A stretch of DNA of 62,883 bases, counting the filler, from Hausera hauseri (Eukaryota): NCBI GenBank assembly GCA_046269625.1. It is 11 parts of 11 records of this genome, joined end to end, with 100 filler letters (N's around TTAATTAATTAA, not from the genome) between each part and the next. Parts side by side here need not be neighbours in the genome. Positions count along the whole stretch, not along the records: positions 4,429 to 10,015 come from JBJURY010225409.1; 10 more parts are not named here. One strand, given 5' to 3'. The notes under the pieces were generated by a model. The model saw only the letters and a list, made by a program, of their open reading frames with translations, was not told where the DNA came from and did not search any database. Below, piece after piece: positions 460 through 62,883 of this stretch. The translations under genes were made by a program, and so were the position numbers. The first letter of the stretch is position 1; each line of letters starts with the position of its first letter.

Positions 460-804
460 TTACACTGCAATGTTGCTTGAAACAAATCCGACCTGCCACG
501 TTGCAATGTTGGAATCACTTTTGACAAAATTTTCCACAAACCGTAATTGACGTGGATTGTCATCCAACGCCAATTTTTGATCAGTGCGAAAAATCTTGCC
601 GAATATCGTGCCCATGTCACCAACAACCTGCTTCATATGTCGTAAATAAGGTTCTTGTGGCCTCCAATTCTCCTCAGCATACCGAAGTATCTCTTCGGGC
701 GAACAGTATCGTGCATCATGTAAAGGTCTATCAAGATTGTAAAGGTGACTCCGGAGACCGTCAAACGACTGATATAAACGAATGAGTTGTGATAAATGGG
801 TCAT
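460..804 (-). CDS. hypothetical protein, divergently oriented upstream of pPolB (possible Polinton accessory gene)
   Basis: 114-aa ATG ORF with protein-like composition; no recognisable motif. Confidence 0.35.
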   Translation of the reverse strand: MTHLSQLIRLYQSFDGLRSHLYNLDRPLHDARYCSPEEILRYAEENWRPQEPYLRHMKQVVGDMGTIFGKIFRTDQKLALDDNPRQLRFVENFVKSDSNIATWQVGFVSSNIAV

Positions 805-1306
805 GTCGTAATGTCATACCGTAAAAAAGCATAGGTATTTATATTGAAATGTAACAAATAAGTTATTGTTTCACGAAAACAAACATATCAAAATAATATA
901 TATATGACTAAATACGGTCAGTCAACTTTTTCATTACAATACAAAGCGAAGCAGAAAATACAATTCCAATGAGGAAATTAATAGGTCGTTGCCACTTTCT
1001 TTTCCACTCATTATGAAGAGAGATCGAACTATTAATTCGATATACTCTGCTCGTCTGCTCATTATTCTGGTTTCTGTCAGCTCACATAGATACTGAACAT
1101 GAAACACGTGTCCAGTCATTTCATCTGTTAATTTCCGAATTTCACTTTCAATGTACTTTTCCATTTAAGTTGTAATATGTAATATGGCTGATATGTTTAT
1201 ACCTGCGTAAAAGAAATAAGTTAGCGTATATCAATTTATTATATAATTGTATTTAATGCTTTCAATTTAAAGTTAACATTTACTTTAATTTCTTTAAATT
1301 TAGAAA

Positions 1307-1735
1307 TGTTCACAATATCCCGCGTACTGCGTCTATCGCATACATGAGGAGGCAGAACAGTGCTATCAACAGATGGCGATATATTACAACGTTGGAATAG
1401 ACACATCTGTGTCCGACGTGTAATAATATTTCATCCAAATGTCCGTACCCCGATTTTTATGAGATGCACAAGCATCATCTCGAACCGTTTACACGGTCGA
1501 AGATGATGCTAATGCATTGCTCCATGTACCCAAGGTACTGTACAAGTACAGTGCACGACGCCGATGGTTTCCATAGTGCAATGGTGAAATACTATGGCGC
1601 CACAACCGTGCAGGGTAAACGGGCCTATATTTGTCCCGCTTGTTCAATAGTTGATGAAATCAACTATGAACAATTTTACAATGAGCACCAGGACCACTTA
1701 AACCAGTTTCAGCGGTGGTCGACAAAACAAATATT
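1307..1735 (+). pseudogene. two tandem copies of an unnamed Cys/His-rich domain 5' of pPolB
   Basis: Copy A: CSQYPAYCVYRIHEEAEQCYQQMAIYY-(frameshift ~1398)-HLCPTC..YPDFYEMHKHHL. Copy B: CSMYPRYCTSTVH..FHSAMVKYYG..YICPAC..YEQFYNEHQDHL. Homologous to 24647-25115. Confidence 0.7.
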
Positions 1736-1842
1736 AATTGAATCAACAAATATCAGCCTCATCCTTTCAACAACAACAACAACCAGTAGGAAACGTACGG
1801 CGTCAACAAGTCTGGAAAAATACATCAGAACCAGTACCGAGC

Positions 1843-1880
1843 TGCAAGAGCAACAGCAGGAGCAGCAGCAGTAGCAACAG
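1843..1880 (+). repeat. (CAG)n-like trinucleotide repeat, polyQ linker
   Basis: cagcaggagcagcagcagtagcaacag; contains a CAG>TAG stop. Confidence 0.7.
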
Positions 1881-4328
1881 TAAGAGGAAGAGATACAACT
1901 GGAACCGGACATTAATGTCAAGTACGATCTGAACAGATCGTACGTGGACAAAAAAGTAAAATGTGCGCACCCGGTTGGAATCAGAAGTGGAGAAATTCCA
2001 ACTCCAACATTGAAAAGTGCAATATAATGCACTTGCAGAATTTAAAAACGTTGATGACGGGAAACAATGGTACCTGTCGCATCGAGCTGTACAATATGCC
2101 AATGATTTTATTGCCGACGTAGGCGAAAAGCTCTAGAAGAAAATCGCCAACTAGATGGAAAAGGGTAGTGAATGGCGAATTACACGAATTTTCACCCTCG
2201 GCTCTATCGTAACAAAGTCGAGTGACATAATATATTTGTCTGGACGATCATTCATACTCTAAAGCCGTCTCTGGCGGTAGTGAATGTAAAATATACTAAC
2301 GATGAATACTATTTTCTTTACAGTATTCTGGCGGTATTGAAATATGACAAAGTGGACATACATAGTGCATCTTGTCCAAAACAGTATCAGAAATATTTTT
2401 CCGAATTGGATTTCGATGAAGGCTGGATGCCGATGAAACCGAAATCCATTCGCGCTTTTGAACGGCGTAATCCGCCAATGGCAATCAACGTATTCCGGTA
2501 TAACACAATCGTAGAAATACCGGCGGATGAAGAAATTTACAAAAATCCTCATGTGGATATAATCTATCGTAGTCGGAACCCAAATGGCCACTCAGTAATT
2601 TTGTTGATACTGGAACAAAAAGAAAAGTACCATTACGTTGCACTGACAAATCTGGACAGACTACTGAACATAGAGCATGACCATTTCCTCCAAAAACGGA
2701 TGTAGTGTAAATGGTGTCCTGTATATCTTTATGGATTCAGGTAGGAAACAACATGGGCGAAACATGTGACTCTGTGCAGACAAAATTCGTCAGGAATCAC
2801 GATGTACACCATGCCCGTCAAACAGGAACTCAGGTTCACTGATTGGTCAAAAACAGACAGCCCGACATATGTAGTATATTCCATTATCGAAGCAATCTTA
2901 CCACGGCGCAACATATGACCAAAAACATGTTCCAATTGCCGTCAGTATGTTGGCTGTCCCAATAAAAGCCGCAGGTCAACCTCAATATTATGTTTTCCAC
3001 GGATGGAATTGTGTACGCGATTTCTTGTAGAAGTTGCAAACCATAGTGGAAACTGAAATCGCACCCTGGTACAGTAGAAAGAGCAATAAACCTTTGATGT
3101 TGACAGATGAAGATGAACGCCTGACGTTTGCAGTCACAAATGAATGTTAACTGTGCCACAAAATATTACCGTTCGACGCACTGGAACGGCTCGTATCGGA
3201 TCACGATCATTTTACTGATCGATATCTCGGAGGAGTATGTAATTCAGGTAATTTGGTAAGGCGTGTGCGGCCATTCCTATCGGTGGTATTTCGTAACTCC
3301 AGGGGTTATGATTGTCACCATATTTTGAAATGGGCAATAAACGGATTTCCGCACTGGGAACTATCTATAATTCCGACTACGATGGAGAAATACCTGTCAC
3401 TGTCTGCTCGTATAAACCGGTTCCAGGTACGCTTCCTTGATTCATTGATATTTCTCAATGAATTATTGGCAAAGTTGGTAAATGCCTTGCCAGATGTGCC
3501 GATAGCACTGATGCAGTTCCCCGCACATATTGCATGCAGCAAAGGCATATTCTTATATGACTTTGTAACATCGTATGAGTGACTCCAGGCAGCAGAAGAA
3601 TTACCGACGCGATGGACAGGTATCGCAGTGAATGAATAACGGAAAACACAGAGGTGTTAGACAGAATTCGGCTGTAGAAACATGTGGGATTACATGCTCT
3701 AGTATCTTAAACTGGACGTGTACTTATATGCCGATGTGTTCCAAGTGTTTAGAGCGAAAGCGTTGGCTGAAGATAGGCTGGAGCCACTCAACTTTTATTC
3801 CATATCGGGAATGAGTTGGGCGTCAGATCTAATGTCACTGTATCGAGACATTGAGCTACTGCAAGACCCGGAAATGTACCAGCTGTTTGATGTTGGTATT
3901 CGCGGTAGCATGACATTTGTCAAAAAGCATCAGGTCAGTGCTACCGATACCACATCACTGATGTATATTGATGTTAATAACCTGTACGGCTGGGCGCTTT
4001 CGCAACCCTTGCCGAACGGTTCATTCGAATGGGTTGTCGACAGACAATATACGGACGACATAATGGTCAACCTACCACAAGCATACATGGCAGACTCAGT
4101 CTGATACCTAATGGAGATCGATCTCGTGGTACCAGATGAGTATCATGAAGTTTTGGCCGATTTTCCGGTCGCACCATTTAACCAATGTCCGACAGACTCA
4201 AAAATAAAGAAACTCCTCATGACGCATGAACCGAGGCTAAATTACGTGGTCCATTGGCGTCTGCTACAGTTCTACATGCATCTCGGTGTTCGCGTCACAC
4301 AGCTGCATCGTGCAATTTGATTTGCTCA
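1880..4328 (+). pseudogene. polB: protein-primed family B DNA polymerase (Polinton/adintovirus type), frameshifted, cut by contig end
   Basis: EKGSEW..I (GSGW-type), NDEYYFLYSILA / HYVALTNLDRLL, FRNSRGYDCHHI (ExoII), RFLDSLIFL, KGIFLYDF, GIRGSM, LMYIDVNNLYGWALSQPLP (motif A); many stops and frameshifts. Confidence 0.9.
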
Positions 4329-4428: not shown

Positions 4429-5360
4429 ACGTTGCGTCGATTTATCACGTGACATATTGAAATATTTCAGTCAAGTCACCGAAAATATTGTCGACAGTTA
4501 CGTCTGGAAATCTGAATCAATTTTATGGCATAGTTTAGCCAGAAGCTGTAAAGCACCATCGATCGACGAAGTAACGCCGGTCGAACGTATTGAACAGTCA
4601 TTTAAACTTATTGTTGAGTCAAACCGAGAGAAGGGAGCAACGAAATCAGCAATGTGGACTGGTAGGCGAGTTGGTGGACCGAATATTTTGAGTAGCCAAA
4701 CAAATCAGGGTTCGTTTAGGCATGATGATGAATCTGTGATAGCTGCTGCACAACTTTTGTCATCGTCGGATGATGACAAATTATCCACGACAGAAGTAGA
4801 GACGAGAGCTAAAACGCCGTATTCGATTCGCCACGATTCTCTTGCTCTATTTTTTCGACATATGTATTTCCTGAGCAGTCTGCGATTGCGAGACATATGC
4901 GACCGCCTTCACATCAGCCGTAAACTCGTGTAAAATATGCACAACATTTGAACATGTAATCATGGACGAAACCCATCTAATGAAAGACCGTTACATGGAT
5001 CAGATTATTATGTGCTGCATATTTGCCGTTACACGGGTAGCATCTGGTCGCGGTTTGTCGTTCCATGAGATAATACAAATGTAGAAGTACTCATGGAAGT
5101 ATACAAAAAGGCCACCAGCATTACATGGGGTAATTTGCTACCAGACGCTAATAAATGTACCATGTATACATCACCGGGCGGTACACAGCGATTTGTCCGA
5201 CGTAAGGAAATCTATGATTACATAATCCGATTCTATAACGGAATTTTCCTGCCTAATTTGCACAATTGCGTCAAACGGTTCATGATAACGTACTCACTGT
5301 CATCAACAGGCAATTCGTCCCAAATACACCAGCCCCACTTGTCGCCTATGCCAACAAGTA
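4429..5360 (+). pseudogene. RBL: retinoblastoma-family (p107/p130-like) pocket protein fragment, intronless and disrupted
   Basis: End of pocket A: KYFSQVTENIVDSYVWKSESILWHSL. Pocket B: SLALFFRHMYFLSSLRLRDICDRL-(fs)-KICTTFEHVIMDETHLMKDRYMDQIIMCCIF..SFHEII, then IIRFYNGIF and PHLSPMP. These match recalled RBL1/2 motifs. Confidence 0.85.
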
Positions 5361-5511
5361 CTGTGAATTTATTTAAAAATACAAAACAGAGTGCTGATAT
5401 GAATGGTAACACGTTTGTGCAAATAACTGAAATACAATCGATATGGACTGCGTCAATAGAAGATTATGAGTACAAAGAACATCCTCTACTATTTCTTGTT
5501 AAAACTGTTGA

Positions 5512-6390
5512 TTGACAGTTCAAAGAACACAAACAATACAGAAATCAAATAGGCGTCATCCGTCATCTGTTTTGAATGATAGAATTATTAATATTAATAA
5601 TGCAGCTGTTGTTCCACACTCTGGTATACTAAAACCACAGCATCCATCATATGATCCTCCTATGCCTAAATACGGACTTGAACCATCCAATTTTGCGCTA
5701 ACCGCTCTCGATTCAGTTTTGTCCAACTGGTCCGCTATAGAAATATTATTTCTCACTGGTGATAAATCAGATTGGTTAAGCTGTATTAGTAATAATGCGA
5801 ATATAGTTAACACAATAGAATAAACCCACTTTCCGACGATGAGGTATTCTGAACTATCAAAGTTTTTCGGAACAATTGGATCAGTTTGTTTTTACCTTGA
5901 TTGCGAAAACGCCATAATCATCTGTTGATATCCTGTTGAATACAATTAATAAACAACTGCAAGATAAAAAATGCAAATATCAAATAAATCATCTAGAGTA
6001 AAACGAGTTGCATCGAGATTGATACATTCTATTGCAAGAACCTTTGTAGCTCTCCAGCTACAGATGGGTCCAGATTTTAACCGTAAACTTCAACAAAGTT
6101 GACTAAGCAGTAATGTTTACGTTTATTCAGCACAACCAAGACCCTTAGATGTTTGTAAACGAATTTTCGAAAGTCTACTCTTTGTGTCTTTGTCCGAACT
6201 ACCAAGAATCGCAGCGAGTGATATTGCTCCCCATTCGAATTTGTTCATTCGCAACTGGTGCATCTTGCGCGATATCCGCGATAACGATGCCTTTCTTTCT
6301 CAGTTTCAACTGACAGATATACAAAGTTTATTCTCCATCGTTACAGTCATTTATAAACACGTCTGGCGAAGCCCAGCAACTTGCCTTTAG
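5512..6390 (+). pseudogene. disrupted coding-like sequence, unidentified
   Basis: Protein-like ORF pieces (5512-5823, 6184-6390) separated by stops and frameshifts. Confidence 0.35.
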
Positions 6391-6441
6391 AACCGCAGAC
6401 TACGACGAACAGCCAGAGGGAAACTCGGCCACTCTGCATTT

Positions 6442-6450
6442 TGGCGCCCG
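6442..6450 (+). promoter_or_regulatory. candidate primer-binding site, tRNA-Lys-like
   Basis: TGGCGCCCG, a 9-nt match to the canonical Lys PBS TGGCGCCCGAAC; not conserved in copy 2. Confidence 0.35.
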
Positions 6451-6551
6451 CCCTGCCGGGGCGGAGGTCCCGACTGTCAACCGTGCGCCGGTCAGTCGGA
6501 CGGCGCCTTCCGCATCGGCCCCCCCCCAGGCGCACCACTTCTTTCCCTCCT

Positions 6552-6758
6552 ATTTTCATTTTTTTCAACAATACGCATATTTACACTCTCAATACATCAC
6601 GTACACACATTCCAACCCTTCGTACTTTCCTTTCTCTTTTACTCAGTTCTTCCAATTTCTATCTCACCCATAACGGCGCTATCATACGACTCACTGGAAC
6701 CCTACCGTCTTTCTTAAGTCACACTTGCCTCCACATACATCTCCGTATCTGTGGTGGC
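6552..6758 (+). CDS. ubiquitin-like domain fused in frame to the Gag N-terminus (copy 1)
   Basis: IFIFFNNTHIYTL..NFYLTHNGAII..LHIHLRICGG|MNSSP; 69 aa, di-glycine end, conserved in three copies. Confidence 0.75.
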
Positions 6759-7844
6759 ATGAACTCTTCGCCAACTATTGACACCACGGATACAACCAGC
6801 ACAAAACCAAAATCTGTCATATTACTTCAAAAACCCATTTCTACCCCTGCTAGCAACCTCCCATCTATTACCTCTTCCTCTCCTTTCCCTAACTAAATCA
6901 AATTTTTTATTGACAACCAAGGTTCCAGAAAAACTTGGTTGCAATTCCATTAGCTATGGCTACAGGCAAATAACATCACTAACTCTTTAACTAGAGCACA
7001 CAATCTTCTCTTCTTACTTCCTAATAATATCAAAACCCGAATTCACAACATCATCGAAATCTCTGAACTCCCTGACCCATATTCCCAACTTTCCAACGCA
7101 GTCCTTAAGATCACAGAACCTTTCATGGACACGATCATACAACGTTTCTTCCACAACAACGTTATAGGCACCCAACGGCCATCAGAATTCTTACGTACCT
7201 CCTTAGCACATCTCCATACCCTCGGCGTCACTAAAGAGCACAACCCAGAACTATTGCGCCACTCTTTCCTCAATGCGTTACCTAAAAAAATCCGGGCCCT
7301 ACTTACCGTGATGGGGGACTCCACACCGCTTGAGAAATAGGCCGAATTAGCCGATAGGACACACGACGTCTTACACTTAAATTCCCCACCAGTAGTTTTA
7401 GCAGCAGTTGCCACTAACGACATACAAACAAATAACACATCCATAGGACAACAGCTTAATCAGTTACGTGCTGAAAATATTGCACTGCATGCAACAATCA
7501 ACAATATCAATAACAAATTAAACGAATTGTCGCTGTCCTGCCGAAGGGGTTTTGCCGCTAATCGCGCCCGTTCTGTGTCTAAAAACCGCTTACCATCGCC
7601 TGCGCGTTTGTCGATCTGCTATTACCACAGCAGATTTAACACTAATGCTCAGAAGTGCTGCCTAGGGTGCAAATTTTATAACAAGAGTTTTTCCTCGGAC
7701 ACCGTTGTTTGCATATACCATGCAAGGTTCAAAAATCAGTCTTGTAAATGTATTCCAGGCTGCACTTGAAAATCAGATACGAACGACGGACGTACTGCCT
7801 TCCCTTCTAATAGTCATCCTAATTTACACTTTCAAAAAAACTAA
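6759..7844 (+). pseudogene. gag: gag with two tandem CHCC zinc knuckles
   Basis: CYYHSRFNTNAQKCCLGC and CIYHARFKNQSCKCIPGC; disrupted by stops and frameshifts. Confidence 0.85.
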
Positions 7845-7882
7845 GTTCGCCGCCAGAAGTCACGGCAAACTCTGGCAAAGGC
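7835..7882 (+). promoter_or_regulatory. -1 ribosomal frameshift signal (slippery site plus H-type pseudoknot)
   Basis: AAAAAAC-TAA..GCCGCCAG..CGGC..CTGGC; conserved at 42578-42626 and, on the minus strand, 46483-46532. Confidence 0.75.
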
Positions 7883-10015
7883 ACTACTTCACTTTCTGAA
7901 CACCGACACGTTTCTTTTGCTGTCTTTACTCTAAAGGATGCAGTTACTGCTCCTACAACGCAATCTGTTGACTTCTTCATTGATACATGTGCAGCGATTT
8001 CTTTATTGCCACAAACCTTCCCTGTAAAAAATTCTCCATTCAGACTTAAGCCCTTATACACTGCTTCAAGCCAACCGCTGCACATTTCTGGCATGGCTAA
8101 ATTGTCTTTCACTTTACCAAACTTTCCTTCACGTTACCACTGGACGTTCACAGTCGCTAACGTCCAGACAGCAATTCTAGGATCCGATTTTCTCTTACAC
8201 TATAATTCACTGGTTGACTGCAGCCAACGATGTTTGAGGAACGGCACCGTTGGTGACATTTCTGGGCATATCAGTAGCATTTCGACTACCGCGCAATCGA
8301 CCGGAATGCGGAGGTCAATCTTTAAAAAGTTAATAAATAATTCCACTTTCCATAATAATAACTCTATTAGTAAATTTTTAAATAATAATATTGATATACG
8401 ATCGAGGTTCGATGTCGATAATTGTGGTACTGCCACCAACGTCAATTTATTCGACGAAAATACTCCATCCAATACCATTTTTAATTCAACCATCTTACAC
8501 CAAATACCACTTGACTGCACATCACCTAACAATTCACAAATTGCATCCGCTACTACTCAAGCCGTTTCACCACTTTCACCAAATCTCTTACAGTTACCTA
8601 CAACTTTACAGCAATTTGTCAACACATCATGTCCACGCGTACTTAAAAAGACTGTACGTTTACTCTTGCCAACAGTACTGTACACCATATTGTTACATAG
8701 CATCAACGACCAATACGCCAAAAGGTGAGGCCTCTGTCACCTCGTCACAGACAGGCCGTAGAAGCCGAATTTCTTGAGCTAGAACGTTCAGGCATAGTAC
8801 GCCGTTCCAAATCTCCTTGATCATCACCGTTACATGTTGTACAAAAAAGGGCGGTACTTTTAGACCATGCGGTAACTACCGACAGCTAAACATCTTAACA
8901 ATCATGGATGCATATCCTTTACCACTCATCAAGGATATCTTGCATCGTCTTAATTCAACCACCATCTATTCAACCACTGATTTAGCTAAAGCATACCATC
9001 AAATACCGGTGGCATCCGAAGACAGAAAAAACTGCAGTAACTACTCCTTTTGGCCTCTATAAATACCTGTTTATGCAATTCGGTTTGCGAAATACCGCAC
9101 AAACTTTTCAGCGGTACACTGATTCAATTCTTTCCGACTTCCCATTTGCACACTCTTATATCGATGATATTCTAGTCGTTTCATCTTCTCCAAAACAACA
9201 CGAGGAACACCTTCGCGCAATATTCCAACGTCTTAACCACCATAATCTGCAAGTAAATGTCAACAAATGCCATTTTTCAAAAAGCGCATTAATTTTTAGG
9301 CCAATTTATTACACCAGACGGTCATTCTCCCCAATCAGACCGAGTCAAAGCTCTTAAAAACATCCAGTTGTCACGTACAACCACCGAAATGCGTAGCTTC
9401 CTTGGCACACTACACTTAGTCCATAAATATGTACCATATTGCTCCGAACTGACAGCACCATTCGCACACCTAAGCGGCTGCAAAAAACATCAACCAAGCC
9501 AGTGGACACCTGAATTGGTTGACAAATTTGACAATCTAGGCGAAGGAATCAAAACCGTCGATATTCTAGCATTCTCCAAGCCTAATGCAGAACTCATCCT
9601 CACTACAGACGCGTTAACCACGGCAATAGGCGCTGTACTGCACCAGATATACAATGGAAAAAATCAACCACTAAAATTTTTTTCTCGCAAGCTAACAGCA
9701 CCTGAAGCCAGATATTCCACGTTCGATCGAGAACTATTAACCATCGTTCTCGCTTTAAAGCACTTCTCTCACCTACTTGTCGCTGGTCACTTCACTCTAC
9801 AAACCGATCACAAGCCCTTACTTAACATCATGGTTATGAAACACCCTTCCACACGCCAAGAACGACAAATATCATACTTACGACATTTATTTTTGATATT
9901 AAACATATTAACGGGGTTAACAATATAGTTGCTGATTCTTTATCTAGGTCGGTTAGTTCGATTAATTTTTCACCGATCTTTACGCAAGATCAACTTCAAC
10001 AGAACCAGCCACCTC
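7845..10015 (+). pseudogene. pol: pol (protease, RT, RNase H), disrupted
   Basis: ORFs 8006-8728, 8817-9062, 9073-9357 (YIDD) and 9368-9928. Confidence 0.9.
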
Positions 10016-24160: not shown

Positions 24161-24646
24161 TCGGTGAAAAGATTTCTTTCAAGCTGACATAATTAGCTTT
24201 GGGAAGATTGAAACAATTACAAAGAGGGCTTGCCGGCTATTGTTTTTCGGCTTTTATTACCTCCACACCGAACATAATTTGATTAGACAATGATCTAATT
24301 TTGATGGANNNNNNNNNNNNNNNNNNNNNNNNNNNNNNNNNNNNNNNNNNNNTTAATTAATTAANNNNNNNNNNNNNNNNNNNNNNNNNNNNNNNNNNNN
24401 NNNNNNNNTACAAGTGCAGCATGTTGGAAACAATATACAATGCTGAATTTTCGCTACCATTAAAATTATTTATTTTTTCTACATGTTTGTTTTGTTTAAC
24501 CTCATCAATTATGACAATTAAAATAAAAATCAATAAAAATGGACAGTGCACGTTGACATGGCTACATATTTCATTATTTCCAATTCACTTCCAAGAATGA
24601 TGAGTTTTGTTATTTGTGCTTCTCAAATAATTGGTTGATTTTTGGA

Positions 24647-25115
24647 TGTGCAACTTCTACAATTTTGTATGGCGCAGAAACATGATGAACAGAATTGCCA
24701 CAGTGTAATGCAGAATTATTTTGGATACCAACACAACAGGACTCAATACTATATATGTCCTGAATGTGAGGTAGTTTGTCGGATCGGTTACGAGGAATTT
24801 TACAACCATTATAAACATTATCTGGATTCATTCACAAAATCGAAGAAAGAAATATTCAACAGTAATATTCCAATGACAGCATGTGTCTCAAAACCAAAAC
24901 AGATGTGCGGTTCCTATGCTTACTGCACATCGAAAGCACATAGTCCGCAACAGTGTCATGAAACGATGCAGCGGTATTATGGACACAAATGCATTACTGA
25001 TCCAATATTTTACGTGTCCGGGATACAAGACTGTATGCGGTTCAGATTACATACAATTCTATTATGATCACAAACATCATTGGAGTTACTTCGCAGCAAA
25101 ATCAAAGAAGGCCAT
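24647..25115 (+). pseudogene. two tandem copies of the same Cys/His-rich domain 5' of pPolB
   Basis: FCMAQKH..CHSVMQNYFG..YICPEC..YEEFYNHYKHYL and CGSYAYCTSKAH..CHETMQRYYG-(fs)-FTCPG..YIQFYYDHKHHW. Confidence 0.75.
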
Positions 25116-25264
25116 TTACAATGAGCAACATAATATTGATGCATCTGCTTCGCAGTATTCTGCCTCGCATTATGCTGCTGGATCTAGTGCAACAGCTGCA
25201 AATCATATTAGAGAATTGAAACGGGCAGCCGCATCAGGCGCATCACGCCCATNNNNNNNNNNGC

Positions 25265-37790: not shown

Positions 37791-38176
37791 NNNNNNNNNN
37801 NNNNNNNNNNNNNNNNNNNNNNNNNNNNNNNNNNTTAATTAATTAANNNNNNNNNNNNNNNNNNNNNNNNNNNNNNNNNNNNNNNNNNNNTCTTCACCTC
37901 TTTACCACACTCTCTGTTTTCCATTGGACTCTAAGTTATTGAACTCCAGCACCTTTGTGACCTCTGCTCTTTGTATCCTCACTTTTCCACCTGCTTCCAA
38001 TGTTTTCTTCTTTATGGTACGTACATATGGGGGTGTCGTTTGTCAAGTTACACAGTCAAAAATTATCAGCAATATTTTGATTTATTTAAACTTTAATAAG
38101 AAAAAAACAGGGGTTTGTTTTTCAAAGGGAGTTTTTCCCCATGTGATTCATACATTTAAAAATGTCATAGTTTATA

Positions 38177-39079: not shown

Positions 39080-41180
39080 TACCGACGAAATTGACACTAA
39101 AAGATCTCAAAGATCCGTTAAGTCATATTTAAAAAAGTCTCCCAGTCGTACAAAAATGTGGAATTTGTAAAATGATCGCACCCAAACAATGCAATCCGTC
39201 ATTTGTAGTTGACTATAAAACCTTTAATTTTCGACCACGTGTCCAACGATTGAATGAAGTTGGGGTCCATGCGATAATAATAATAAGTTTTGTTCATTCT
39301 TTAGAGGCGTATTGGCAAGTTCAAAATTGCCGGTGGGAGTTGCCGATGGTTCGCAATAAAAAATTGGGTGTATTCAAGTTGCATAAAAAAGTAAAGAAAT
39401 ACGGCGGTGGCCAGCAGGCGACAAAGAACAAGCAATGGACACAGATTTGTCAGCTTTTAGGATTCGATGAGAAATCACATCATGTCTGTACGATGGTTCA
39501 AGAGTCTTTCAAAAAATTGATTAAACCGTATTTGGATTTCTGCTATGAGACACTTCAGAACTCCAATCTCAATTTGTTTCATGATCCAAATTTGATTCTA
39601 GGCCTCCAAAATTAGAATCAAAATTGACATTAATTTCGGATCGCCGAAAATAACTCGTTCAAAAAGCAAAGCATCGCAAAAGATCACGGACAGAAGTTGT
39701 AAAATTTATGAATCGGACAGCAATTCAAAACAACTTATACGTTATAGCAAATGTTGTGGTTGGTACCACATAGTTAGTCTCGGTCCGCCTTTATCCGATA
39801 TGCCACTGGGTAAACACTGGATGTGTATTCGTTGTAGTCACATAAATTGCCGGAGAGAACTAGCTAAGCTCGATGCTGAAGTGTTTGGGTTTGCTCAGTC
39901 CACGTGTAAATATAGTTTGGTGATATTTGCAACATACTCAGATAATTTCAAACACACGCATTCCAAGGACAGCAAAGTGATGGAGAATTCTTGGACATAT
40001 TACCCTGGTTTTAATCAGACATTTTTCTACAGAGACCGTCAATTTTTTGCCCGCCTGATTGGCTTATAAAAGTCCGCTTATCCGTGACAAATTATCGATC
40101 AGTCAAACATCCATCGATATTCTCTCATTACGAATTTGTCAGTAAAATGGAAACTGCCGTTGAATTACTCGATCTTCTTCTACTGAAAGCTGTTCATCAC
40201 GAAATACTCGTCATCCAACCAGAACAAAAACCATCAAGAATACAAATGTATTTATCAGTTCAAGTTACTTATCGAACTGAAAGATAGCAACTCGATAAAA
40301 TATCAGAAGACGAACCAGAACGTATTGTCTGTCGCACAACTTCGTTAATATCAGGTGTAACGCGTACCCTCTGTGGTACATTGTAAATGGAGTAACTAGT
40401 CTCAATCACATCAAAGATGTTTGTCACTGTTCAAATATAATAAAAATCATTTTAAAAAACCGTTATTCATTGGATGAAATTACAGGTCTAGCGAATAATG
40501 TTAACAAACATCTGGAACAATACAGACTGTGGAAGGCTCTTGTTCATCATTTGACAAAACCCAATTTCTGTGCTAATATCATTCCGGCTGAGGAATATCG
40601 ATTTATCAAAAATATTTCAACAGTTATTGAAAAGCCCAACACTCTGAAAGAGAAGAACATGAAGGCTGTGAATACTGAGAAAAAATGGACTTAGGGAGAC
40701 TCGGGATTCTTCTACAACACAAAAAGCATGAACTGTCCTTCTCATCTGTCGAACTTCTCAGAAGCAGTAACAGAGACGTGTTATCGAACAATGAACTTCA
40801 CAAATCAACTGTTGAATGCACATCAACAAACGGTCAAATTTGAAAAGCACGAAACAACAGAATCAATAAAATCCGAATTCAAATGCAAAAGTACTACTGT
40901 TTTCAAACGGAGTATTGCTGCACAGAAACATGAGAAACAAATTGATAAATCGACATTTCCTGAAATGCAATCATCTTTAGAGAAACTGAGAAGTCTATCG
41001 GACCATTTTCCACAACTTAAAGAGGCAGCACAAATTCCGAATTACAGTAATACCTGGAGGGAAAAGGTGAAATACGTCGTTCTAAGTCTGACTGTAACAA
41101 GCAATACGGACAGTAAATGGATAAATACTTTACTGTATTATGTGGACAAATGCGTTACTTCAGCCACCAAACAGGGTTCC
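39080..41180 (+). pseudogene. KDM5: KDM5/JARID1 histone demethylase relic (JmjN, ARID, PHD1, C5HC2, PLU-1), JmjC core missing
   Basis: DPLSHI..CGICKM..FRPRVQRLNE (JmjN); YWQVQ..KLHKKVKKYGG..KQWTQI (ARID); YHI..PPL.DMP.G.WMCIRC (PHD); FGFAQ..YSL; GFN..VNF..DWL; HIKDVCHC..RYSLDE. Confidence 0.9.
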
Positions 41181-41185
41181 GCCTC

Positions 41186-42747
41186 AACAGCCGAATTCTT
41201 CGGGGGGAGAGTTTTCCCCGGCACCTCTGTGTTATTGGTGCGGATCGACATCCTCGGTCGCTCATCACAGAGCCGTGGGTCGCGTGTCATGCAGTGCGGG
41301 GACATTACATCACGCCTCTGGCTCTAGCCATCCCTCATTTTCAATTCTCATTTTTAAATTTAATACACATTAAAACATATCACGCATGTAACAGTACATT
41401 AGGGAAACATATACACGTCGATTTTTAAAGTCTTCCATCTTTCTGAATTCACTCTATTTCTGAATGGACTTATTCTTTACCCCGACGAAATGATGTGCTC
41501 TTTTCAATCACTTCTTTCCTGATATCTTAATCTAGAGCTAATTCCTAAACTCCGCGGTGGCTCTGATCCAACCTCTGAGGAGATAAAGAAATCTCCAAAT
41601 ATAACTTTTGCTTCCCCAACTCCATCTTCTTTCCCACATTTTCAGTTCGCGGATTTTTCTTCGGTAGTCAAAACTCTTGTTGAACATGGCTAGATTTCCA
41701 GGCAAAGCGGAAAGTCCCACATAAAATCACTGATTCGTTTCAAAAGGCGAAAAGTCTACTTTTCCATCTGCCACCCAATATAAAATTCGGCATAACTAAT
41801 CCTTTTGACACCTTTAATCATTCTGATCTATACAAATCGCTACTTGACGCTGTAACTACATCAACTGAGCCTCCGCTAGATTCTAATTCAAAAATACTTC
41901 AACGAAAATGCTCTTGGCCAGCAAAAGCCTTCGGAATTCCTTCGGACCTCACTTTCGCAATTAAACTCATTCGGCGTAAACCAACAAAATAACGCGGATC
42001 TTCACAGACACTATTTCCTCTCATCTTTGCCAATCCAAATCCGCGCACTTCTCACTGTAGTGGAGGATTCTTCGTCGCTTGACAAACTGGCGCAACTGGC
42101 GGACAGAAGTTATGAAATATTTCATAACAGCAATTCACACACAACCGTTCTAAATCTACAAGCAACGCAATCACCAACAATAGTTGCAAACCTGCAATCA
42201 GCAAATTCATCAAACAATGCGCATACTACAATTAACCAAATTTAAAATCTGCAATCCATCAGGCCATTTGGGCCATTTCTAACAAACTTGACTCTTTGTA
42301 CCTGCCGCGTCGTGATCGTTTTAGCACAAACCGGAGCCGACAGTCGTCTGCAAACTCTACGCATGCTCAGTCACCTTCGCGACAAATGATGTGCTATTAT
42401 CACACTAAATTCAATAGAAATGCAAAAAATGATGTGTATGGTGAAAGTTCTATACAAAGCGTTTTTACTCACACAATGCAGTCCGCATCTACCATGGTAA
42501 GTTTAAAGACTGTGCAAAACGCTGCTTACCTGGGTGTAAGTTTTACACCCAAAACATTCCAACTTCTTCATCTATTCAAAAAACCACTAAAGCCGCCAGA
42601 AACTACGGCAAATTCTGGCAAAGGCCATCTGTTCCGTTTTGACTGCCGTACTTCTACCAATAGCGTTTTCTTATTGGATGCTGCACTCACATCTTTTCCT
42701 ATACACATTGAATTTATGATCGATTCAGGTGCAGCTGTTTCATTACT
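41186..42747 (+). mobile_element. CsRn1-like Gypsy copy 2: leader-UBL-gag-frameshift-PR start
   Basis: SEFTLFLNGLIL..LNLELIPKLRGG|SDP; LPIQIRALLTVV..LDKLAQLADR; CYYHTKF; IDSGAAVSL. Confidence 0.9.
41338..41561 (+). pseudogene. ubiquitin-like domain at the Gag N-terminus (copy 2), frameshifted
   Basis: ILIF..SEFTLFLNGLIL..LELIPKLRGG, with GG at 41556-41561. Confidence 0.7.
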
Positions 42748-43056
42748 NNNNNNNNNNNNNNNNNNNNNNNNNNNNNNNNNNNNNNNNNNNNTTAATTAAT
42801 TAANNNNNNNNNNNNNNNNNNNNNNNNNNNNNNNNNNNNNNNNNNNNACATGCATCATGATGTGAAAGCATTGAAATAAAAAAAATAAAAATTATAAATC
42901 TCTAACATAAAATAACGTCATAAAATACGTTACAACCTACACAATATAGAACAACTAACAACACTCTATCTAATATAAAAAGACTATGTACATAAACTAC
43001 ACATGAAAAACGTGAGAAAATACGATAACATTGTATTAAAGTATAGCTTGTGACAG

Positions 43057-43078
43057 GCACTACAATACTCCCCGTGGC
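43057..43078 (-). promoter_or_regulatory. polypurine tract and 3' LTR start
   Basis: Minus strand GCCACGGGGAGTAT-TGTAGTGC; same motif at 61362-61388. Confidence 0.7.
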
Positions 43079-46000
43079 TGAGATGAATTGTAAATAAAAG
43101 ATTGAAAGGAAATCCCGAGACCAAACTGTTTTAAAAGGTTTTGTGAGTACGAGGCGTTGTAATCCATCGTTATATAATTGTCTGCTATAGATGATAAATG
43201 TGATTGATTTTCGCTATATTTTCACTGTAGTGTCTGAATGCTTGCTGGGTTTGGCAAAAACACATTAGTTTTAGTATGATTGGGTGTTGTGTCTGGGGAA
43301 GGTAGAAAGAGATGATTGTAGGTAAATTATTCCAGTTTTCTGCGACAGTTTTGGAAGGTGATAAGTTGGCCGGTGAAGTAGAAATAGGCGAAGGTATAGA
43401 AATAGGGTGTGGAGCAGAAATATAGGTAAAGATAGACGTAGAGGGTAATGCAGAGATGGGGACAGGAGTGAGATTGGTAGATGACGATATATGTAAGAAT
43501 TTTTGTTATGTAAAAGTATGCAAAACGAATCTTTGATGATTATGACAAAGTGATCCTGTGCTGCTCGTATTCTATCGTCTGTAGAAGTCTCTTCAAGAGC
43601 GGTACAGAGGTTCCGAATAAAGCTTCCGTTGGTCAGCATCCTGTGGAAGTAGACGGGGTGTTCCATCATCCAAGCAGAACGAACGGAAGAAGAGTACTCC
43701 ACTTGGTGTTGGACTGTCCAAGGATTATAAGCGATGTTTTCAATGTTCGATGGAAGCGTTCGAGAAGGCCGTTCAATTGGGGATGATAAGGTGTTGTATA
43801 AATGTGGCTTATTCCCAATGGGTTGATTAGGGATTCAAACAAATTTGACTCGAATTACAGACCTTTGTCTAAGATGATATAACGAGGAGACCCGAATCTA
43901 CTAATCCACGTACGGATGAAAATATCGGCTATAGTATCAGTGTTTGTGCTTCGCAGTCGGATGGATTCCGGCCATCGTGAGGAACGGTCCATCATGGTCA
44001 GAATAAATTGGTGCCCGTTATCTATTGGAAGGGAACCGACGATATCAATATGTACTGTTTCAAAGCGTGATGTGCAAGGGAAGTGGAATAATGGTGGTTT
44101 TAAATGTTTTATGCTTTTATATTTCTGACAAGGCACGTACTCTTTAACGCACGCTTGCACATCGGAGTGCATGGACGGCCAAACTACCTGACGTTAAATT
44201 AAGCAAACGTTGCCTTGGCACCAGGATGATGTAATAAATGTACACTATCAAATGCTTTTTGTGTAAAGATGGGGCAAGAATTATTTTAGAATTTCCTGGT
44301 TTGGAAGTATCTAAGGCCACGCCGTTAACGATGTGGTGAGAATTGAACGACTTTAGAACGTCTTAGGATGGCTGATTTTCTTGCAGTTTTGTCTGAGTAA
44401 AAATTGGCGAAAAATTGACTGAACCGACTGATCTAGATTGGAAATCGGCAAATAGATTGTCAACACCGTCAATGTGTTTAATGTCAAAGTTAAACGTGGA
44501 TAAATTTGAAATTTGTCGTTCTTGTCGAGTTGAAGGATGTTTTATTGTCATTACATTAATCAGCGGTTTGTGATCAGTCTGTATAACAAAATGACGAGCT
44601 GTAAGTGAAATAAACGTCTTAAAGCAAGGACTATTTCCAGAAGTTTTGTGGTAGAAAGTTGAATATCTAGTTTTGGGCGGCGTTAATTTTCGGGGAAAGA
44701 ATTCTAGGTGCTGATTTTCGCCTTTATATAACTGGTGTAATACGGCGTCTACTGCGATGTTTGATGCATCTGCGGTCAAAATTATTTCAGCGTTAGGCTT
44801 AGGAAATGATAGTATTTCAACGGTCTTTAGTCCTTCACGTAGTCTATCAAACTTGTTAACCAGTTGTGGTGTCCATATGATTTTCTGGTGTTCTTTTTCC
44901 TCCACTTAAGTGTGCAAAAGGTGCTGTGAGTTCTGAACAATATGGGGTATATTTGTGGACGAAATGCAGGGTAGCAAGAAAACTGCGCATTTCACTGGTT
45001 GTCTTGGGTAGTTGGAGGTTTTTCAGAGTCTCAACTCGATCAGGCTAAGGCGAATGGCCTCTTGAGGAGATAATATGTCCAAGAAAATTAACATGTTTTT
45101 GGAAGTAGTTACATTTCGCAAAATTGATCTATAGGTTAAACTGATTAAGTTGTCTGAAGACATATCGTAGGTGTTCCTCGTGTTGTTTAACAGAAGAAGA
45201 AGCAACCAAGATATCGGCAATATATGGATGAGCAAAAGGGAAGTCTGAAAGAATTGTGTCGACTTGTCGCTGAAAAGTCTGCGCAGCATTCCGGAAGCCG
45301 AAAGGCATGTACAAATACTCATAAAGACCGAAAGGTGTGGTAACTGAAGTTTTTTCCATGTCTTCAGGTGCGACAGGAATTTGGTCGTAAGCTTTGTCTA
45401 AATCAATTGCTGAATAGACTGTAGTAGTATTAAGCCGATATAATATGTCTTTGATTAATGATAGTGGATATGCATCCATTATGGTTAAACTATTAGGCTG
45501 GGGATTATTGCCGCATGGTTGGAAGGATCCATCTTTTTTGGACAACGTCGAGAGGCGAAGACCATTGGGATTTAGACCTGCGGACAATACCTGATTGTTC
45601 AAGGTCAAAAAATTCCGCCTCTACTGTTTGCCTGCGGCGCGATGACAATGGACGGACCTTTTGTCGAATTGGTCTTTGGTATCGTGTAAATATATGGTGG
45701 TAAATGCCGCTTACAGGAATGGAATTCCGATCTTTCTGAAGTATACGAGGGCAAGAAGTATGGATGAATTGTTGTAAACTTACGGGTAGTTGCTGGAATC
45801 TGGGAAGTTACAATGAACCGATTTTGCTACCAGTACTTGGTGAATGTTGATTGATTGTTGGTGGAGAAATCAGTGGAGTTTGTCTGAGACCTTATTTAAG
45901 TACGTGTTGTTGTACGGTGATTTTACTGAAGATACAAGATCGTGAGTGACGTCATTGAGCTGTGACTGATTATCGACATTCCACTTTAAAAGCTTACGAG

Positions 46001-47618
46001 GTAAAACGTGATAGTTAAGAAAATCAGGGTGTTGTGTTGACTGTTTTAAGATTGATTGCCTACTTACCGTTGGCTGTGCTGTCGTCGGGTGCCTCCTATC
46101 CCTGCATTACAGTCTTCGGGTGTATTTGATTTCAAACATCGTTGGTTACAATCGACTAGCAAATTATAGCGCAACAGGAAATCGGAGCCAACTATTACCA
46201 TCTGAACGTTAGCGACTGTAAACGTCCAATAAAATAGTGAGGAAAGTTTTGGGTAAATGGAAGATAATTTGCAAGTTCCAGCAATATGCAGGAGTTGACC
46301 GGAGGCGGTATATAACGGTTTTGTTTCAAGTGAAGAATTCTGAACCCGGAAAAAAGTGGTAATGAGATCGCTGCGCCAGTATCGATGAGAATGTCTATTG
46401 CTTGAATGTTGGGATTAGAGATAGCAGCTTTTAGTGCAAAGACTGCAAATGAAGTGTGTCGGCAAGAAGAATTAGGACATTTGCCTTTGCCAAGATCTGC
46501 CATGAATACTGGCGGCGGAATCAGTTTTTTTTGGATTGATGAGGTTGGTCGATCAATGCTAGAGAAACTGGGGCGTATATCAGTAGTGTAACTACGGTTA
46601 GTTTTATAGTGGCAGCATGAAATACAGTTCCGAGCACTTGATCCATATGTTGCATGATAGATGCAAACAATGTTATCTGAGTGTAGATGTGAGGAATAAT
46701 ATCTACAGCCTAAACAGCATTTCTTTGTTTTGTTATTAAATTTGTTATAATAATAACATATGAATGAACATGTTGGTGACGGTGTTCCATTTCTTGAGAC
46801 ATAGCGCGTTCGATAGTGAAAGAAAGCATTCCGTCGATATCATGAAAGGTCATTCAGCTTATCATTGATGTTATTGATTGTAAGTTGTAGTGCCGCATTT
46901 TCGGCGCGTAACTGGTTCAATTGGTGTTCGATAGATGTATATCGTTGATTATCGTCGGTCGTAATTTAGGCTGATATGACGGGTTGTGATTGTATTAGTA
47001 AAATTTCGCGTGCTTTATCGTCCAATTCAGTTAGTTTATCTAAAGCTGCAGAATCCTCAACAACAGTAAGTAGATCCCTGATTTGGATGGGTAAAGCGTT
47101 AAGAAAATATCGGCGGAGTAAATCTGGAATTGTTCCTTGGTGACACCCAGGGTACGTAAGTGGGTCAACGAGGTCCCTAAGAAATTATTAAGTTTTGTTT
47201 CCCCATTGCGTTTTCATTAAAGAATCTTTGTATTATCGAGTCAATTGGTGGTTTTGTTAGTTTTAATACAGCACTGAACAATTGCATATAAGGGTCAGGA
47301 TGTTGAAAGATATCCAATAAGTTATGGATTGAGGTTTTATGGAGTTTGATAGAAGGTAGAGTAGATTATGGGCTTTGGTTAATGAATCGGTAATGCCGTT
47401 GGATTGAAGCCAATGTTGGTGGAAGTGGAGCCATGTCTTACTAGAATTTTCATTGTCTGTAAAGTATTCAGAGCAATGAGAACGTGTAATTGTAGGGGTT
47501 TTGTGAGAAAAACTAGTATCGGTCGAAGTGGTTAGTTGATTTGATTTTGGATAGTTGACAATGGATTTGGTTTTGTGGCCGCCTTATCTGTGAAATCACT
47601 GGTCGGTGAAGAAATCAT

Positions 47619-47832
47619 ACCGCCGCGGATTCTAGGGTGGATATGAATACCGAGGTAGTGTTGTGAGGACATGATGTATGGGAGTTCGGTTAAAATGAAT
47701 CCATTGTGTGTCAAATAGAATTCACTAAAGGCAGTGGCTTTATAAATAGTCATATAATCGTGATGTGTCGATACGTTGTGTAATATATGCGGTATGTATT
47801 AATTTATCATTTACAAAAAGATGGATGTGAAT
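47619..47832 (-). pseudogene. ubiquitin-like domain at the Gag N-terminus (copy 3)
   Basis: IHIHLFVNDKLIHT..-(fs)-SEFYLTHNGFIL..GIHIHPRIRGG|MISSP. Confidence 0.75.
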
Positions 47833-60919: not shown

Positions 60920-61354
60920 TCAGTCACACATGTTTCGAACAGAAAAGCGTCCAAGGAATGTTGTGAACGTGTGAGACGATGTAACTGACTCGAGTACTTC
61001 TTGTTTAACACTAGCAGGTTGTTCTGGTATAAAATTGGTAGGTCTATTCACTGATAATTGTAGTTTCATTCCAATATCATCATTGGCATCATCATCTGTC
61101 AAGTCGACTCTCTGCATAGCTTTGACATCTTTTAAGTAATCATCATTGATTTCGTTGTAAAAAGAGAAAGGGTTTTGCCATTGACTTGGTAGTAATATAC
61201 CCTTCTTGCTCGTCCTTTCCGGTCTCTGTAGATATGAAGTTTCCAACTTTCGCACTAACGATAATAATGTTGATTTTCGCGATTTTTTGTGTCGTATGGT
61301 CACATGGCGGGAAAGATCCTTCCATCGGCACACTAATTTCCCCAGTGCGACCAC
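60920..61354 (-). CDS. hypothetical ORF directly downstream of the copy-4 3' terminus
   Basis: 144-aa frame with a protein-like C-terminal half; no ATG start. Confidence 0.3.
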   Translation of the reverse strand: MVALGKLVCRWKDLSRHVTIRHKKSRKSTLLSLVRKLETSYLQRPERTSKKGILLPSQWQNPFSFYNEINDDYLKDVKAMQRVDLTDDDANDDIGMKLQLSVNRPTNFIPEQPASVKQEVLESVTSSHTFTTFLGRFSVRNMCD

Positions 61355-61361
61355 ACTCTAA

Positions 61362-62883
61362 GCACTACATCACCCCCCCCCCCGTGGCAGAAAAGACACG
61401 ATATGAAGGCGAAAGAAAACGCTGAAAATATGATTGATGAAAAACGAAGACTATGAAGAGAAGAAAATCAATGGAAATTATAGTAGGAAAAGGAAGAGCT
61501 TATACCTATTCGGTTTTGGTACGTGTTAGACGTTGGACTCCATCTATGAACTTCTCCCTGCTGGAAGTGCTAAACGTCACATGACGTGATCTGTTAGATG
61601 TTGCTAATGCTTGTGGATTTGTTCGAGGGAGAGATACTGTGGATTTTTTGGTACTGGAAGATACTTTATGAAGAGGTTAAAATGGAGAGGAAGCTGAAAA
61701 TGGAAAAGGATCACGCGAAGAAGACGATACTGGAGAATGCAGCGAACCGTGCGATGACAGTGAAAAGAGTAGTGGGTGTGCAGGCGATGACGGCGAAGTA
61801 AATGGTGAATGAGCAGTGAACGATGACGGAAATGAAAAGGACTTATTGTGATTCGATTGCTGCGACGGCTCAAAATTATCGAGAAAATTAGATAATGACT
61901 CGCGGGTAGAGAAATTAGAGTCAGGATTTGAAACAAGGCTGTTATCCTGGTCATCATCAACGAAGAATGCTGGCTTAAGATTAGAGATATGTACATTTTG
62001 AGGTTTGACTTGCGCAAAATATTAGCGGTGTGCGAACAAAGGTTTAGTAGTTTGTAAGGACCAACGTATTGAGGCCGAAAACCAGACGGTGAAGTATCCT
62101 TCAGCCATACAAATTTGGCTGAGTATATGTCCTCTGGAATATAAGATTTGTCTTTATTTACAAGACGGCAAAAGGCGTTTGAGTTTACCTCTACAAAGTG
62201 GGACTGTGCTGCACGAATGACTTCATCTGATTGATTTTCATCCATATTGGAGAGCTCAAATAGTACACGAATTGGTGTCCAAACGAGAACTTCAGCCCGG
62301 GCACAACCGGTGGTAATAGATGGCGTGTTGCGCCAACCAAGTAGAACAAGAGGAAGAATCGAGGTTCAGTTACGATTGTTGTTTGCCAGAATTTTTAAAG
62401 AAATCTTCATGATGCGGCGAAATCTCTGAAGAAGGCCATTTGCTTGGGGATTGTACGGCGTCGTATGGAAGTGGGCTATCCTCAAGTGCTTTACTAGAGA
62501 TTTAAAAAGATCAGTTTCAAATTGCGAACCCTGGTCCTTTATAATGTAACGTGGTGAACCAAAACGGCTGACACATATCTTGATAAATGCATCTGTTACT
62601 GAGTCAGTGTTGGTTGATCGAAGCGGAACGGCTTCAGGCTAGCGGGAAGCACGATCCATCATGGATAAAATATATTGATAGCCGTTGTCGGATAGCAAAG
62701 GGTCGACAAGATTCAAATGCAGTGTCAAAATGGGACGTACAAGGGAAGTGGTAAAGTGGGGGTTTTAGGTTTTTGTGGACCTTGTATTGCTGGCATGCTG
62801 CACATCCCTTGACCCAGGTCTGTACATCTGTACGCATAGTTGGCAATACAACGTGGCGTTGCAGTAGGCGAAATGTGGCTTTT
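61362..62883 (-). mobile_element. CsRn1-like Gypsy copy 4: integrase, tail, PPT and terminus
   Basis: CAACQQYK..PPLYHFP, KDQGSQFE, YNPQANGLL, PQYVGPYK (GPY/F); PPT GGGGGGGGGGTGA-TGTAGTGC. Confidence 0.9.

Follow-up and report, generated by a model that had tools for sequence, protein, structure and literature searches.

A GC-rich structured island ahead of a ubiquitin-like domain and Gag in decayed Ty3/gypsy retrotransposon copies of Hausera hauseri

Element copies in the window

The window, i.e., the whole stretch of DNA that was analyzed, comprises 62,883 nt of the Hausera hauseri assembly GCA_046269625.1 and consists of 11 short contigs joined by N linkers. Contig JBJURY010225409.1 (window 4429-10015) carries a GC-rich island and copy 1 of an element which, judged from its sequence, is a decayed Ty3/gypsy retrotransposon with a DUF7041-type Gag (Table 1). 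In copy 1, which lies on the plus strand, Pfam recognized a weak DUF7041 Gag as well as reverse transcriptase (RT; RVT_1, E 3.9e-17) and RNase H (RT_RNaseH, E 1.6e-26), and the region resembling a ubiquitin-like domain (UBL) shares one frame with Gag (6534-7844, with four in-frame stops). Two further diverged copies are present in the window, namely copy 2 on the minus strand near 43040-47800 and copy 3 on the plus strand near 41186-42747. The Ty3/gypsy order of Gag followed by protease, RT, RNase H and integrase was found, with RT and RNase H in copy 1 and integrase in copy 2, and full pol is present in the relatives L002 and L004. A polypurine tract and an LTR start are present in copies 2 and 4 and in L002; paired LTRs were looked for on these short contigs and not found, and the contigs of copies 1-3 yielded no 5' LTR, no primer-binding site (PBS) and no in-frame AUG upstream.

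Table 1. Coordinates of the features described in the text, as positions in the window
Feature	Position	Strand	Details or basis
Frameshifted retinoblastoma-pocket-like fragment, no evident introns, 5' of copy 1	4430..5515	+	Pfam, by eye
Copy 1 upstream reading frame to island, ends TAG 6388-6390	5965..6390	+	No Pfam or Atlas match
GC-rich structured island, copy 1	6408..6536	+	Several short hairpins, two GGCGCC palindromes
Main hairpin, copy 1	6467..6501	+	Outer helix with CGAC/GTCG, TCA bulge, 3-bp inner stem, loop 6483-6489
Loop-pairing 3' strand, copy 1	6529..6534	+	Pseudoknot, or base of the alternative long hairpin
Ubiquitin-like domain (UBL), copy 1, ends LRICGG	6552..6758	+	AlphaFold model, Foldseek, relatives
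DUF7041-type Gag, copy 1, two Cys/His knuckles	6759..7844	+	UBL frame; four in-frame stops
Decayed pol, copy 1 (protease-like, RT, RNase H), ends at contig end	7823..10015	+	Pfam
Probable -1 frameshift signal, copy 1	7835..7878	+	AAAAAAC, then GCCG/CGGC and CCAGA/TCTGG pseudoknot; putative function
KDM5-like fragment (ARID, PHD, C5HC2) 5' of copy 3	39133..41185	+	Pfam
GC-rich island, copy 3 (GC 0.58)	41186..41325	+	Stem CAC/GTG; loop AGAGCC 41269-41274 pairs with GGCTCT 41320-41325
Copy 3 UBL (LRGG end), Gag, protease start; heavily decayed	41344..42747	+	
Copy 2: UBL-Gag-pol with integrase, polypurine tract, LTR start	43040..47800	-	
Fourth related element, 3' end: integrase, polypurine tract, short GC-rich LTR-like stretch	61290..62883	-	

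The Gag-Pol junctions of all three copies carry similar signals, each consisting of a slippery run and a pseudoknot-like GCCG/CGGC, CCAG/CTGG arrangement (window 7835-7878, about 42578-42625, and about 46500-46530 on the minus strand). At L002:5845-5919 and at window 61290-61385 (minus strand), a polypurine tract is followed by 66-80 nt of GC-rich sequence running from TGT to ACGACA, which is possibly a very short LTR; the stretch in the fourth element is unrelated to the islands, and two more ORFs lie beyond it on the same strand (60923-61357 and 59169-60515). Elsewhere in the window, an intact 1593-codon ORF of retroviral type with RT and two RNase H domains occupies 53224-58002 on the plus strand, and its contig also has an env-like ORF; this ORF resembles lokiretrovirus-type elements of fish. 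As well, decayed Polinton-type ORFs resembling DNA polymerase B were read by eye on two contigs (463-4104 and 24639-28082).

The UBL-Gag clade and its upstream reading frames

In the AlphaFold model of the copy 1 UBL, residues 9-72 follow the order of a beta-grasp fold (pLDDT up to about 80), and the top Foldseek rows for this model are nearly all chains of the ubiquitin, ISG15 or SUMO type (probability 0.84-1.0, with weak E values of 0.02-0.24). By sequence alone, the window UBL had no match in Pfam or PDB; Pfam ubiquitin matched 7 of the 24 relatives' proteins scanned, one of them at E 3.7e-23. A beta-grasp fold that ends in Gly-Gly and stands ahead of Gag, as befits a ubiquitin-like processing domain, was thus found.

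The P0001 search of 1.84 billion representatives returned 1774 matches, and the UBL counts come from the 150 matches listed. Among these 150 cluster representatives, 27 have a UBL-GG before the Gag core (24 of them extend at least 10 residues upstream and 16 at least 100), and 8 more have two knuckles and no called UBL. In the Gag-core tree of 49 rows, which was midpoint-rooted and contains one long branch, all 32 UBL double-knuckle rows fall on one side of a 100/99 branch that holds the window element, the L001 and L002 proteins and the G001 loci, the contigs of the latter being eukaryote-like. The members of this clade resemble ordinary DUF7041 (PF23055) Ty3/gypsy elements (Metaviridae; L007-L010) in their Gag core, their protease-RT-RNase H-integrase order, their PBS-like sites, and their polypurine tract followed by an LTR starting with TG. 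However, the ordinary elements possess a 145-nt LTR and a PBS followed about 20 nt later by the ATG of a short Gag with one knuckle and no UBL, whereas the UBL-Gag clade has two knuckles and a UBL-GG, together with an in-frame extension that may reach about 850 codons and in some members contains host fragments.

The proposal that cleavage of the UBL gives Gag a defined N-terminus is a sound one, because the UBL-GG is fused to Gag across the whole clade, and on these sequences such cleavage may be expected. Only 4 of 41 sequences have a Met directly after GG; ATG 6759 is therefore not a conserved start. Two other UBL-Gag proteins (P0119/P0124) form a separate DUF7041 pair in the Gag-core tree. 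In addition, a UBL-GG is fused before an unassigned retroelement-like protein and after a long open upstream frame at L036:3-1301, and at L037:2-715 (minus) it precedes a protein that looks BEL/Pao-Gag-like by eye, with no Pfam support. The occurrence of UBL-GG before an unrelated DUF7041 pair and before other retroelement-like proteins suggests repeated gain of the tag.

The genome contig search gave 11 loci by RT, including the ordinary elements L007-L010, and none by Gag; the metagenome scan gave 4 loci out of 114 pattern matches; and no relatives were found in the viral contigs and phages scanned. A homologue search with the UBL alone returned none, and alignment A3 and the P0157 region had only 3 close relatives each. 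No UBL-Gag gypsy element and no IGR-type IRES of a retrotransposon were found in the open-access literature searched.

The reading frame of the UBL commonly continues far upstream in the relatives. In L001, the 852 codons ahead of the UBL are free of stops, whereas each of the other five frames contains 28-59 (P about 4e-20), and L002 has 346 stop-free codons upstream of its UBL. The JGI proteins P0013, P0010 and P0014 are exact contiguous ORFs (3/3 tested). Six of the G001 loci are clade members with a UBL; in five of these the frame stays open for 64-160 codons 5' of the UBL, and in the remaining one it is cut after 16 by the contig end; L004, where the frame closes inside the UBL at AT-rich DNA, is an exception. 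PBS-like sites of clade relatives lie 140-340 codons before GG; such sites occur in L031, L038 and L040, with a putative tRNA identity. L001:2231-2272 and L002:355-396 share a 5' segment, followed by a T-rich and GC-rich stretch, that is read through in frame; by eye it resembles the 3' untranslated region and polypurine tract of an element and may be a captured piece of another element.

Host gene families were found upstream in 5 of the 24 proteins scanned (CNOT1 plus Rrp44, histone H2A, SCC3, 5'-nucleotidase, and RING), and P0157 has a methyltransferase in the same position; the ENA proteins with host-family cargo may be spliced gene models. The upstream frame of L001 includes a fragment of cohesin SCC3. 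In P0166, a PBS-like peptide precedes a nucleotidase-like stretch, which places this cargo inside the element; such peptides presumably correspond to primer sites. The clade appears, from its open frames, to tolerate in-frame host-gene cargo, for which no prior description was found in the literature searched.

Host-gene-like fragments also lie 5' of copies 1 and 3 in the window. The retinoblastoma-like (Rb-like) fragment ahead of copy 1 matches Pfam RB_A (E 2.4e-6) and RB_B (E 9.8e-5) at 4430-4930, the rest to 5515 having been read by eye, and is covered by several differing contigs of run X1; it is probably captured cargo, a candidate for which no 5' LTR was found that would place it inside the element. 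The KDM5-like fragment ahead of copy 3 matches ARID (E 2.4e-15), PHD (E 3.5e-4) and zf-C5HC2 (E 0.0035), and an AT-rich 20-nt tandem repeat that is also palindromic lies 5' of it (38168-38313). Ahead of the UBL of copy 3, the frame from 40695 enters the island stop-free (0 stops in 208 codons versus 12 and 8 in the other frames), and 40695-41186 received no Pfam or Atlas assignment. The corresponding frame of copy 1 has 3 stops in 198 codons (5965-6560), versus 6 and 9 in the other frames. Searches of the ESM Atlas with the upstream frames gave only leads under 0.9. Two unassigned ORFs on the element's strand upstream of copy 2 (48454-49113 and 48172-48393, minus) are possibly further cargo.

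The GC-rich islands and their pairings

The original prediction described an AUG-less GC-rich leader closed by a pseudoknot, and its elements are present in the sequence. The island stands out in AT-rich DNA (GC 0.69 at 6408-6551, against 0.41 in the contig and 0.39 in the window) and is the most GC-rich of the five stretches in the window with at least 62 GC per 100 nt, two of which directly precede a UBL. The hairpin CCGACTG (6470-6476)/CAGTCGG (6493-6499) with its inner ACCG/CGGT and loop TGCGC was found, as was GCGCA at 6530, which is complementary to the loop, and the loop pairing and UBL strand 1 (6552) are six codons apart. No ATG occurs from 6408 to the codon after GG, the only ones within 6200-6900 being at 6287 and 6759. 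The pairing of copy 1 can reach 6-7 bp (6483-6489 with 6529-6535), and its 3' strand reads Gly-Ala in the upstream frame that ends at the TAG.

Taken alone, the copy 1 island is not exceptional. Folding of its 144 nt gave z -0.73 relative to shuffles (43 of 200 were as good), and its sub-hairpins reached z values of only -1.5 to -1.6. A loose 6-bp loop pairing occurred in 10% of shuffles, and the full pattern, which was defined post hoc, in 1 of 2000. The lack of an in-frame ATG is by itself unremarkable: it was seen over 351 nt in 1661 of 5000 shuffles, and the absence of ATG in any frame in 166 of 5000. Two nested alternatives, one with the loop exposed and the other with a long 3' hairpin, differ by about 5 kcal/mol in each of copies 1 and 3. 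The distance from inner stem to 3' strand is 36 and 42 nt in the two island copies. In run X1, the summed contig depth, which is not copy number, was 428-788 in the island bins, 43-169 in the upstream part and above 3000 in Gag, and a 326-nt contig covers the island. The search of sequencing runs yielded one run with matches and no RNA run among the matches listed. A frameshifting role for the island was dropped, as GGGAAAC at 6418 lies outside the slippery phase of the upstream frame and copy 3 has no such heptamer.

The match in copy 3 is what lifts the island above chance, although the geometry test was not blind. Copy 3 has a 3-bp stem and a 6-nt loop, and the 6-mer partner of the loop lies 36 nt before the UBL strand 1 end (35 nt in copy 1). 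The last base of its GGCTCT completes a codon in the frame of UBL strand 1, whereas copy 1 ends in frame only in a 5-bp register, the two copies differing by one base. The covariation that had been called for was thus seen in part: copy 3 keeps the pairing with two of six loop pairs and two of three stem pairs changed on both sides, in a comparison of only two copies. Both islands share the opening AACAGCC, a CGAC/GTCG helix, a TCA bulge and a loop ending in GCC, and of the five distances between anchors common to both copies, three have changed by a multiple of three (+15, -9, and +6) and the other two by +1 each. The copy 3 geometry occurred at the homologous place in 2 of 20000 shuffles, or in 35 of 20000 with 3 nt of slack, the test having been written after the pairing was seen, and at 71 of 59823 positions of the window background. 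No GC island was found ahead of the copy 2 UBL, and the pairing geometry was absent from copy 2, L001 and L002; the pseudoknot is therefore not needed clade-wide.

These figures bear on whether the island is a mere passenger, that is, a GC-rich captured or ancestral stop-free piece that is tolerated and whose matching pairings are partly chance. Such a reading would account for the z values of just -0.73 and -0.83 for the islands, for their number (two copies only, with copy 2 lacking one) and for the fact that their sequences are not significantly alike (p 0.63), and the geometry test was designed after both copies had been seen. However, the rarity of the same geometry at a homologous position (2-35 of 20000 shuffles), the shared opening, helix and bulge, and the adjacency of two of the five GC islands to a UBL all speak against it, and we consider it quite unlikely.

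Another reading takes the island as the end of a 5' LTR with a primer-binding site, so that the upstream gene fragments would be flanking DNA. In both copies a TGG-initiated stretch follows a short T run (6442 and 41236), and the ordinary relatives do have their short LTR, PBS and ATG in such an order. The two TGG stretches, however, diverge after three bases, neither island is matched by the start of the 3' LTR in copy 2 or copy 4, the 3' LTR start of L002 does not match its own 5' region, and the PBS-like sites of clade relatives lie 140-340 codons before GG; this arrangement is very improbable.

A self-cleaving ribozyme, which would trim the element RNA from an upstream transcript, had been listed as an alternative. 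The island would suit one in its size, in its GC richness and in having a pseudoknot-like pairing where the conserved part begins on its 5' side. An Rfam search of both islands with E up to 10 returned only sub-threshold, unrelated matches and no IRES or ribozyme family, and an ARAGORN scan found nothing. The usual hammerhead and twister cores are absent, and the loose HDV descriptor is uninformative because it matches both strands inconsistently (3/14 and 22/0). Moreover, cleavage at the island would cut the long open frames of the relatives. The ribozyme gained no support, and we regard it as extremely improbable.

Function of the island and significance

In the original prediction, the leader was supposed to initiate translation independently of Met, as in the intergenic IRESs of dicistroviruses (type 6), with the UBL then setting the Gag N-terminus. 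In this reading the island is an internal entry site, either intergenic or embedded in ORF1, acting alone or beside read-through, and an anticodon-codon-like loop pairing would start translation without an AUG at the codon that follows. The 6-bp pairing, which copy 3 retains despite changed bases in both strands, would be in line with it, as would the in-frame end of the pairing in copy 3 (and in copy 1 in the 5-bp version with a 7-nt loop). The distance between pairing and UBL, which is the same within a base despite islands diverged beyond recognition, suits an initiation role. In copy 1 a stop lies just upstream, namely the TAG 18 nt 5' of the island, which could be a true intergenic stop.

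Several observations weigh against internal entry. Besides the negative Rfam search, no nested 5' pseudoknot common to both copies was found among the helices of at least 5 bp listed, the usual L1.1-type motifs are absent from the islands, copies 1 and 3 need different registers for an in-frame end, and the structure is missing from copy 2, L001 and L002, all of which have UBLs. The linker of 36-42 nt between inner stem and 3' strand is not that of a compact PKI, judged against the usual linker length. The islands showed no significant homology to the peptides that lie upstream in P0002, P0003, P0152 and P0157. Peptides compatible with the pairing were no commoner than chance in P0003/P0152 (0.34-0.35), and P0157 and P0002 had none.

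Relatives also have in-frame AUGs, which are seen upstream of a GC-rich motif of the G001 loci. This conserved 96-nt motif in ORF1 (L038:425-520), with GGGGC...GCCCC and ACCACG...CGTGGT helices, is matched exactly by seven G001 contigs and with one mismatch by an eighth, and in the loci that reach the UBL it shares the UBL frame, at a distance of about 90-110 codons from the domain. In L038 and L040, a PBS-like site overlapping an in-frame ATG is followed by a second ATG in AAAATGGC, upstream of the motif, and L041 has one in-frame ATG, in AAAATGGC, likewise upstream; no stop intervenes between in-frame ATG and motif in any of the three, and the L038 frame continues into UBL strand 1. Thus, three of the eight motif loci have an upstream in-frame ATG and three are too short to tell, and the remaining two (L031 and L039) have none before the motif, in an open and stop-bounded frame. 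The motif had no Rfam match among 7 loci, showed no compensatory change of its pairs in 7 sequences, and as a model did not match the window islands, L001/L002 or the partial motif in L022. It lies downstream of the PBS-like site, as a packaging or dimerisation signal would, and is an analogy only, not demonstrably the same element as the window islands.

The claim of a Met-independent leader did not hold up well against these relatives, given the in-frame AUGs of L038, L040 and L041 and the open frames of L001 and L002. An in-frame AUG before the UBL, which had been named as counting against the idea, was found in sister lineages. The idea of an IRES is weakened rather than dropped, because embedded type 6 IRESs work inside ORFs (PMC12221177). 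Like the type 6 IRESs (PMC10516663; PMC12221177), the island is a structured RNA of about 130-145 nt that closes with a loop pairing a few codons ahead of a structural protein and has no AUG close by, and its size falls in the range of types 6c/6e (PMC10516663). It differs from them in its GC richness, its long linker in place of a compact PKI, and in that no nested PKII/PKIII, SLIV/SLV or L1.1 motifs were seen; since the defining nested 5' domain and compact PKI (PMC10516663) were not found, the island should not be classified as type 6. In the main text of PMC12221177, neither retrotransposon nor Metaviridae is mentioned. All in all, we regard internal entry as doubtful, and still somewhat less probable is its fullest form, a sublineage in which a factor-independent, tRNA-mimicking IRES embedded in ORF1 rides on a UBL-tagged gene-capture vehicle and makes Gag start-codon-free whatever the cargo. 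If it were true, factor-free initiation would be extended to retroelements, with a type 6-like IRES outside RNA viruses.

The reading that we prefer, and to which we give about even confidence, is that the island is a conserved RNA structure, situated between host-gene-like fragments and the UBL-Gag, likely read through from an upstream AUG and likely serving as a packaging, dimerisation or reverse-transcription signal, with UBL cleavage freeing Gag. Because the relatives keep a long frame into the UBL, it is more likely that ribosomes pass through the fold, as a signal within the frame, than that they enter there without a start codon. A packaging signal, which the original prediction had listed as an alternative, is thus our first choice for what the island may do, by analogy; the wider role in packaging, dimerisation or reverse transcription was chosen because of the position of the island and the analogy with the Ty1 5' pseudoknot and the G001 motif. 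The 5' pseudoknot of Ty1 TIPIRT is needed for retrotransposition, in cis for packaging and reverse transcription, and conformational switching was proposed for it (PMC5454406). What the two have in common is a pseudoknot with hairpin loops complementary to each other, placed toward the 5' side of an LTR-retrotransposon RNA. Ty1, however, is copia-type, and the PBS forms part of its domain at the very start of the RNA (PMC5454406), whereas the island lies far from any PBS found, behind cargo. By the same analogy, the island is likely a sublineage-specific cis element inside ORF1.

Under this preferred reading, translation would start at an AUG near the primer-binding site, a feature present in the sequence of sister loci and presumed for the window family. 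The ribosome would then read captured host mRNA pieces, island and UBL in one frame, as the open frames of relatives suggest for the window copies. Subsequently, a host protease of the deubiquitinase type would cut after GG and fix the Gag N-terminus, a step that we infer because of the UBL fold, the conserved GG and the precedent of pestiviruses. With cleavage after GG, the 5' part of ORF1 would be disposable, so that host pieces could stay if the frame is open; fragments acquired by template switching would thus survive and collect 5' of the island. The island itself may persist as the RNA needs a cis element, possibly with switching between the loop-exposed and long-hairpin forms. The structures and folds, and the open frames and ATGs of relatives, are seen directly; for the window family, read-through, cleavage, the internal position of the cargo in copies 1 and 3 and the island function are inferred.

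Precedents exist for two of these steps. In pestiviruses, an inserted ubiquitin was described as a processing signal that lets host hydrolases free the protein that follows, whose N-terminus is then authentic (PMC8310069). As in these cytopathogenic pestiviruses, the window element would carry a captured ubiquitin in a polyprotein, with predicted release of the downstream protein; the pestivirus ubiquitin, however, is a sporadic insertion before NS3, whereas here a fixed, diverged UBL precedes Gag clade-wide. As for capture, sense pieces of host mRNA were reported to be taken up inside LTR elements by template switching in the LTR-mediated retrocopies of animals (PMC5131818). Those retrocopies are described there as chimeras flanked by discontinuous, nonautonomous elements, unlike the UBL-Gag clade, in which an open UBL-Gag and pol follow the in-frame 5' extension (in L002, and in L001 to the contig end).

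The main interest lies in the cargo-carrying UBL-Gag clade more than in the idea of an IRES. A cleavable UBL tag would free Gag from whatever in-frame cargo precedes it, and, if the preferred reading holds, it is through host deubiquitination that a widespread gypsy clade detaches Gag from the reading frame 5' of it. Such uncoupling would account for the ability of these elements to carry and translate mosaics of host genes, including cell-cycle, chromatin and RNA-decay factors, with gag and pol kept, and would provide a route to exon shuffling, like the capture of oncogenes by retroviruses.
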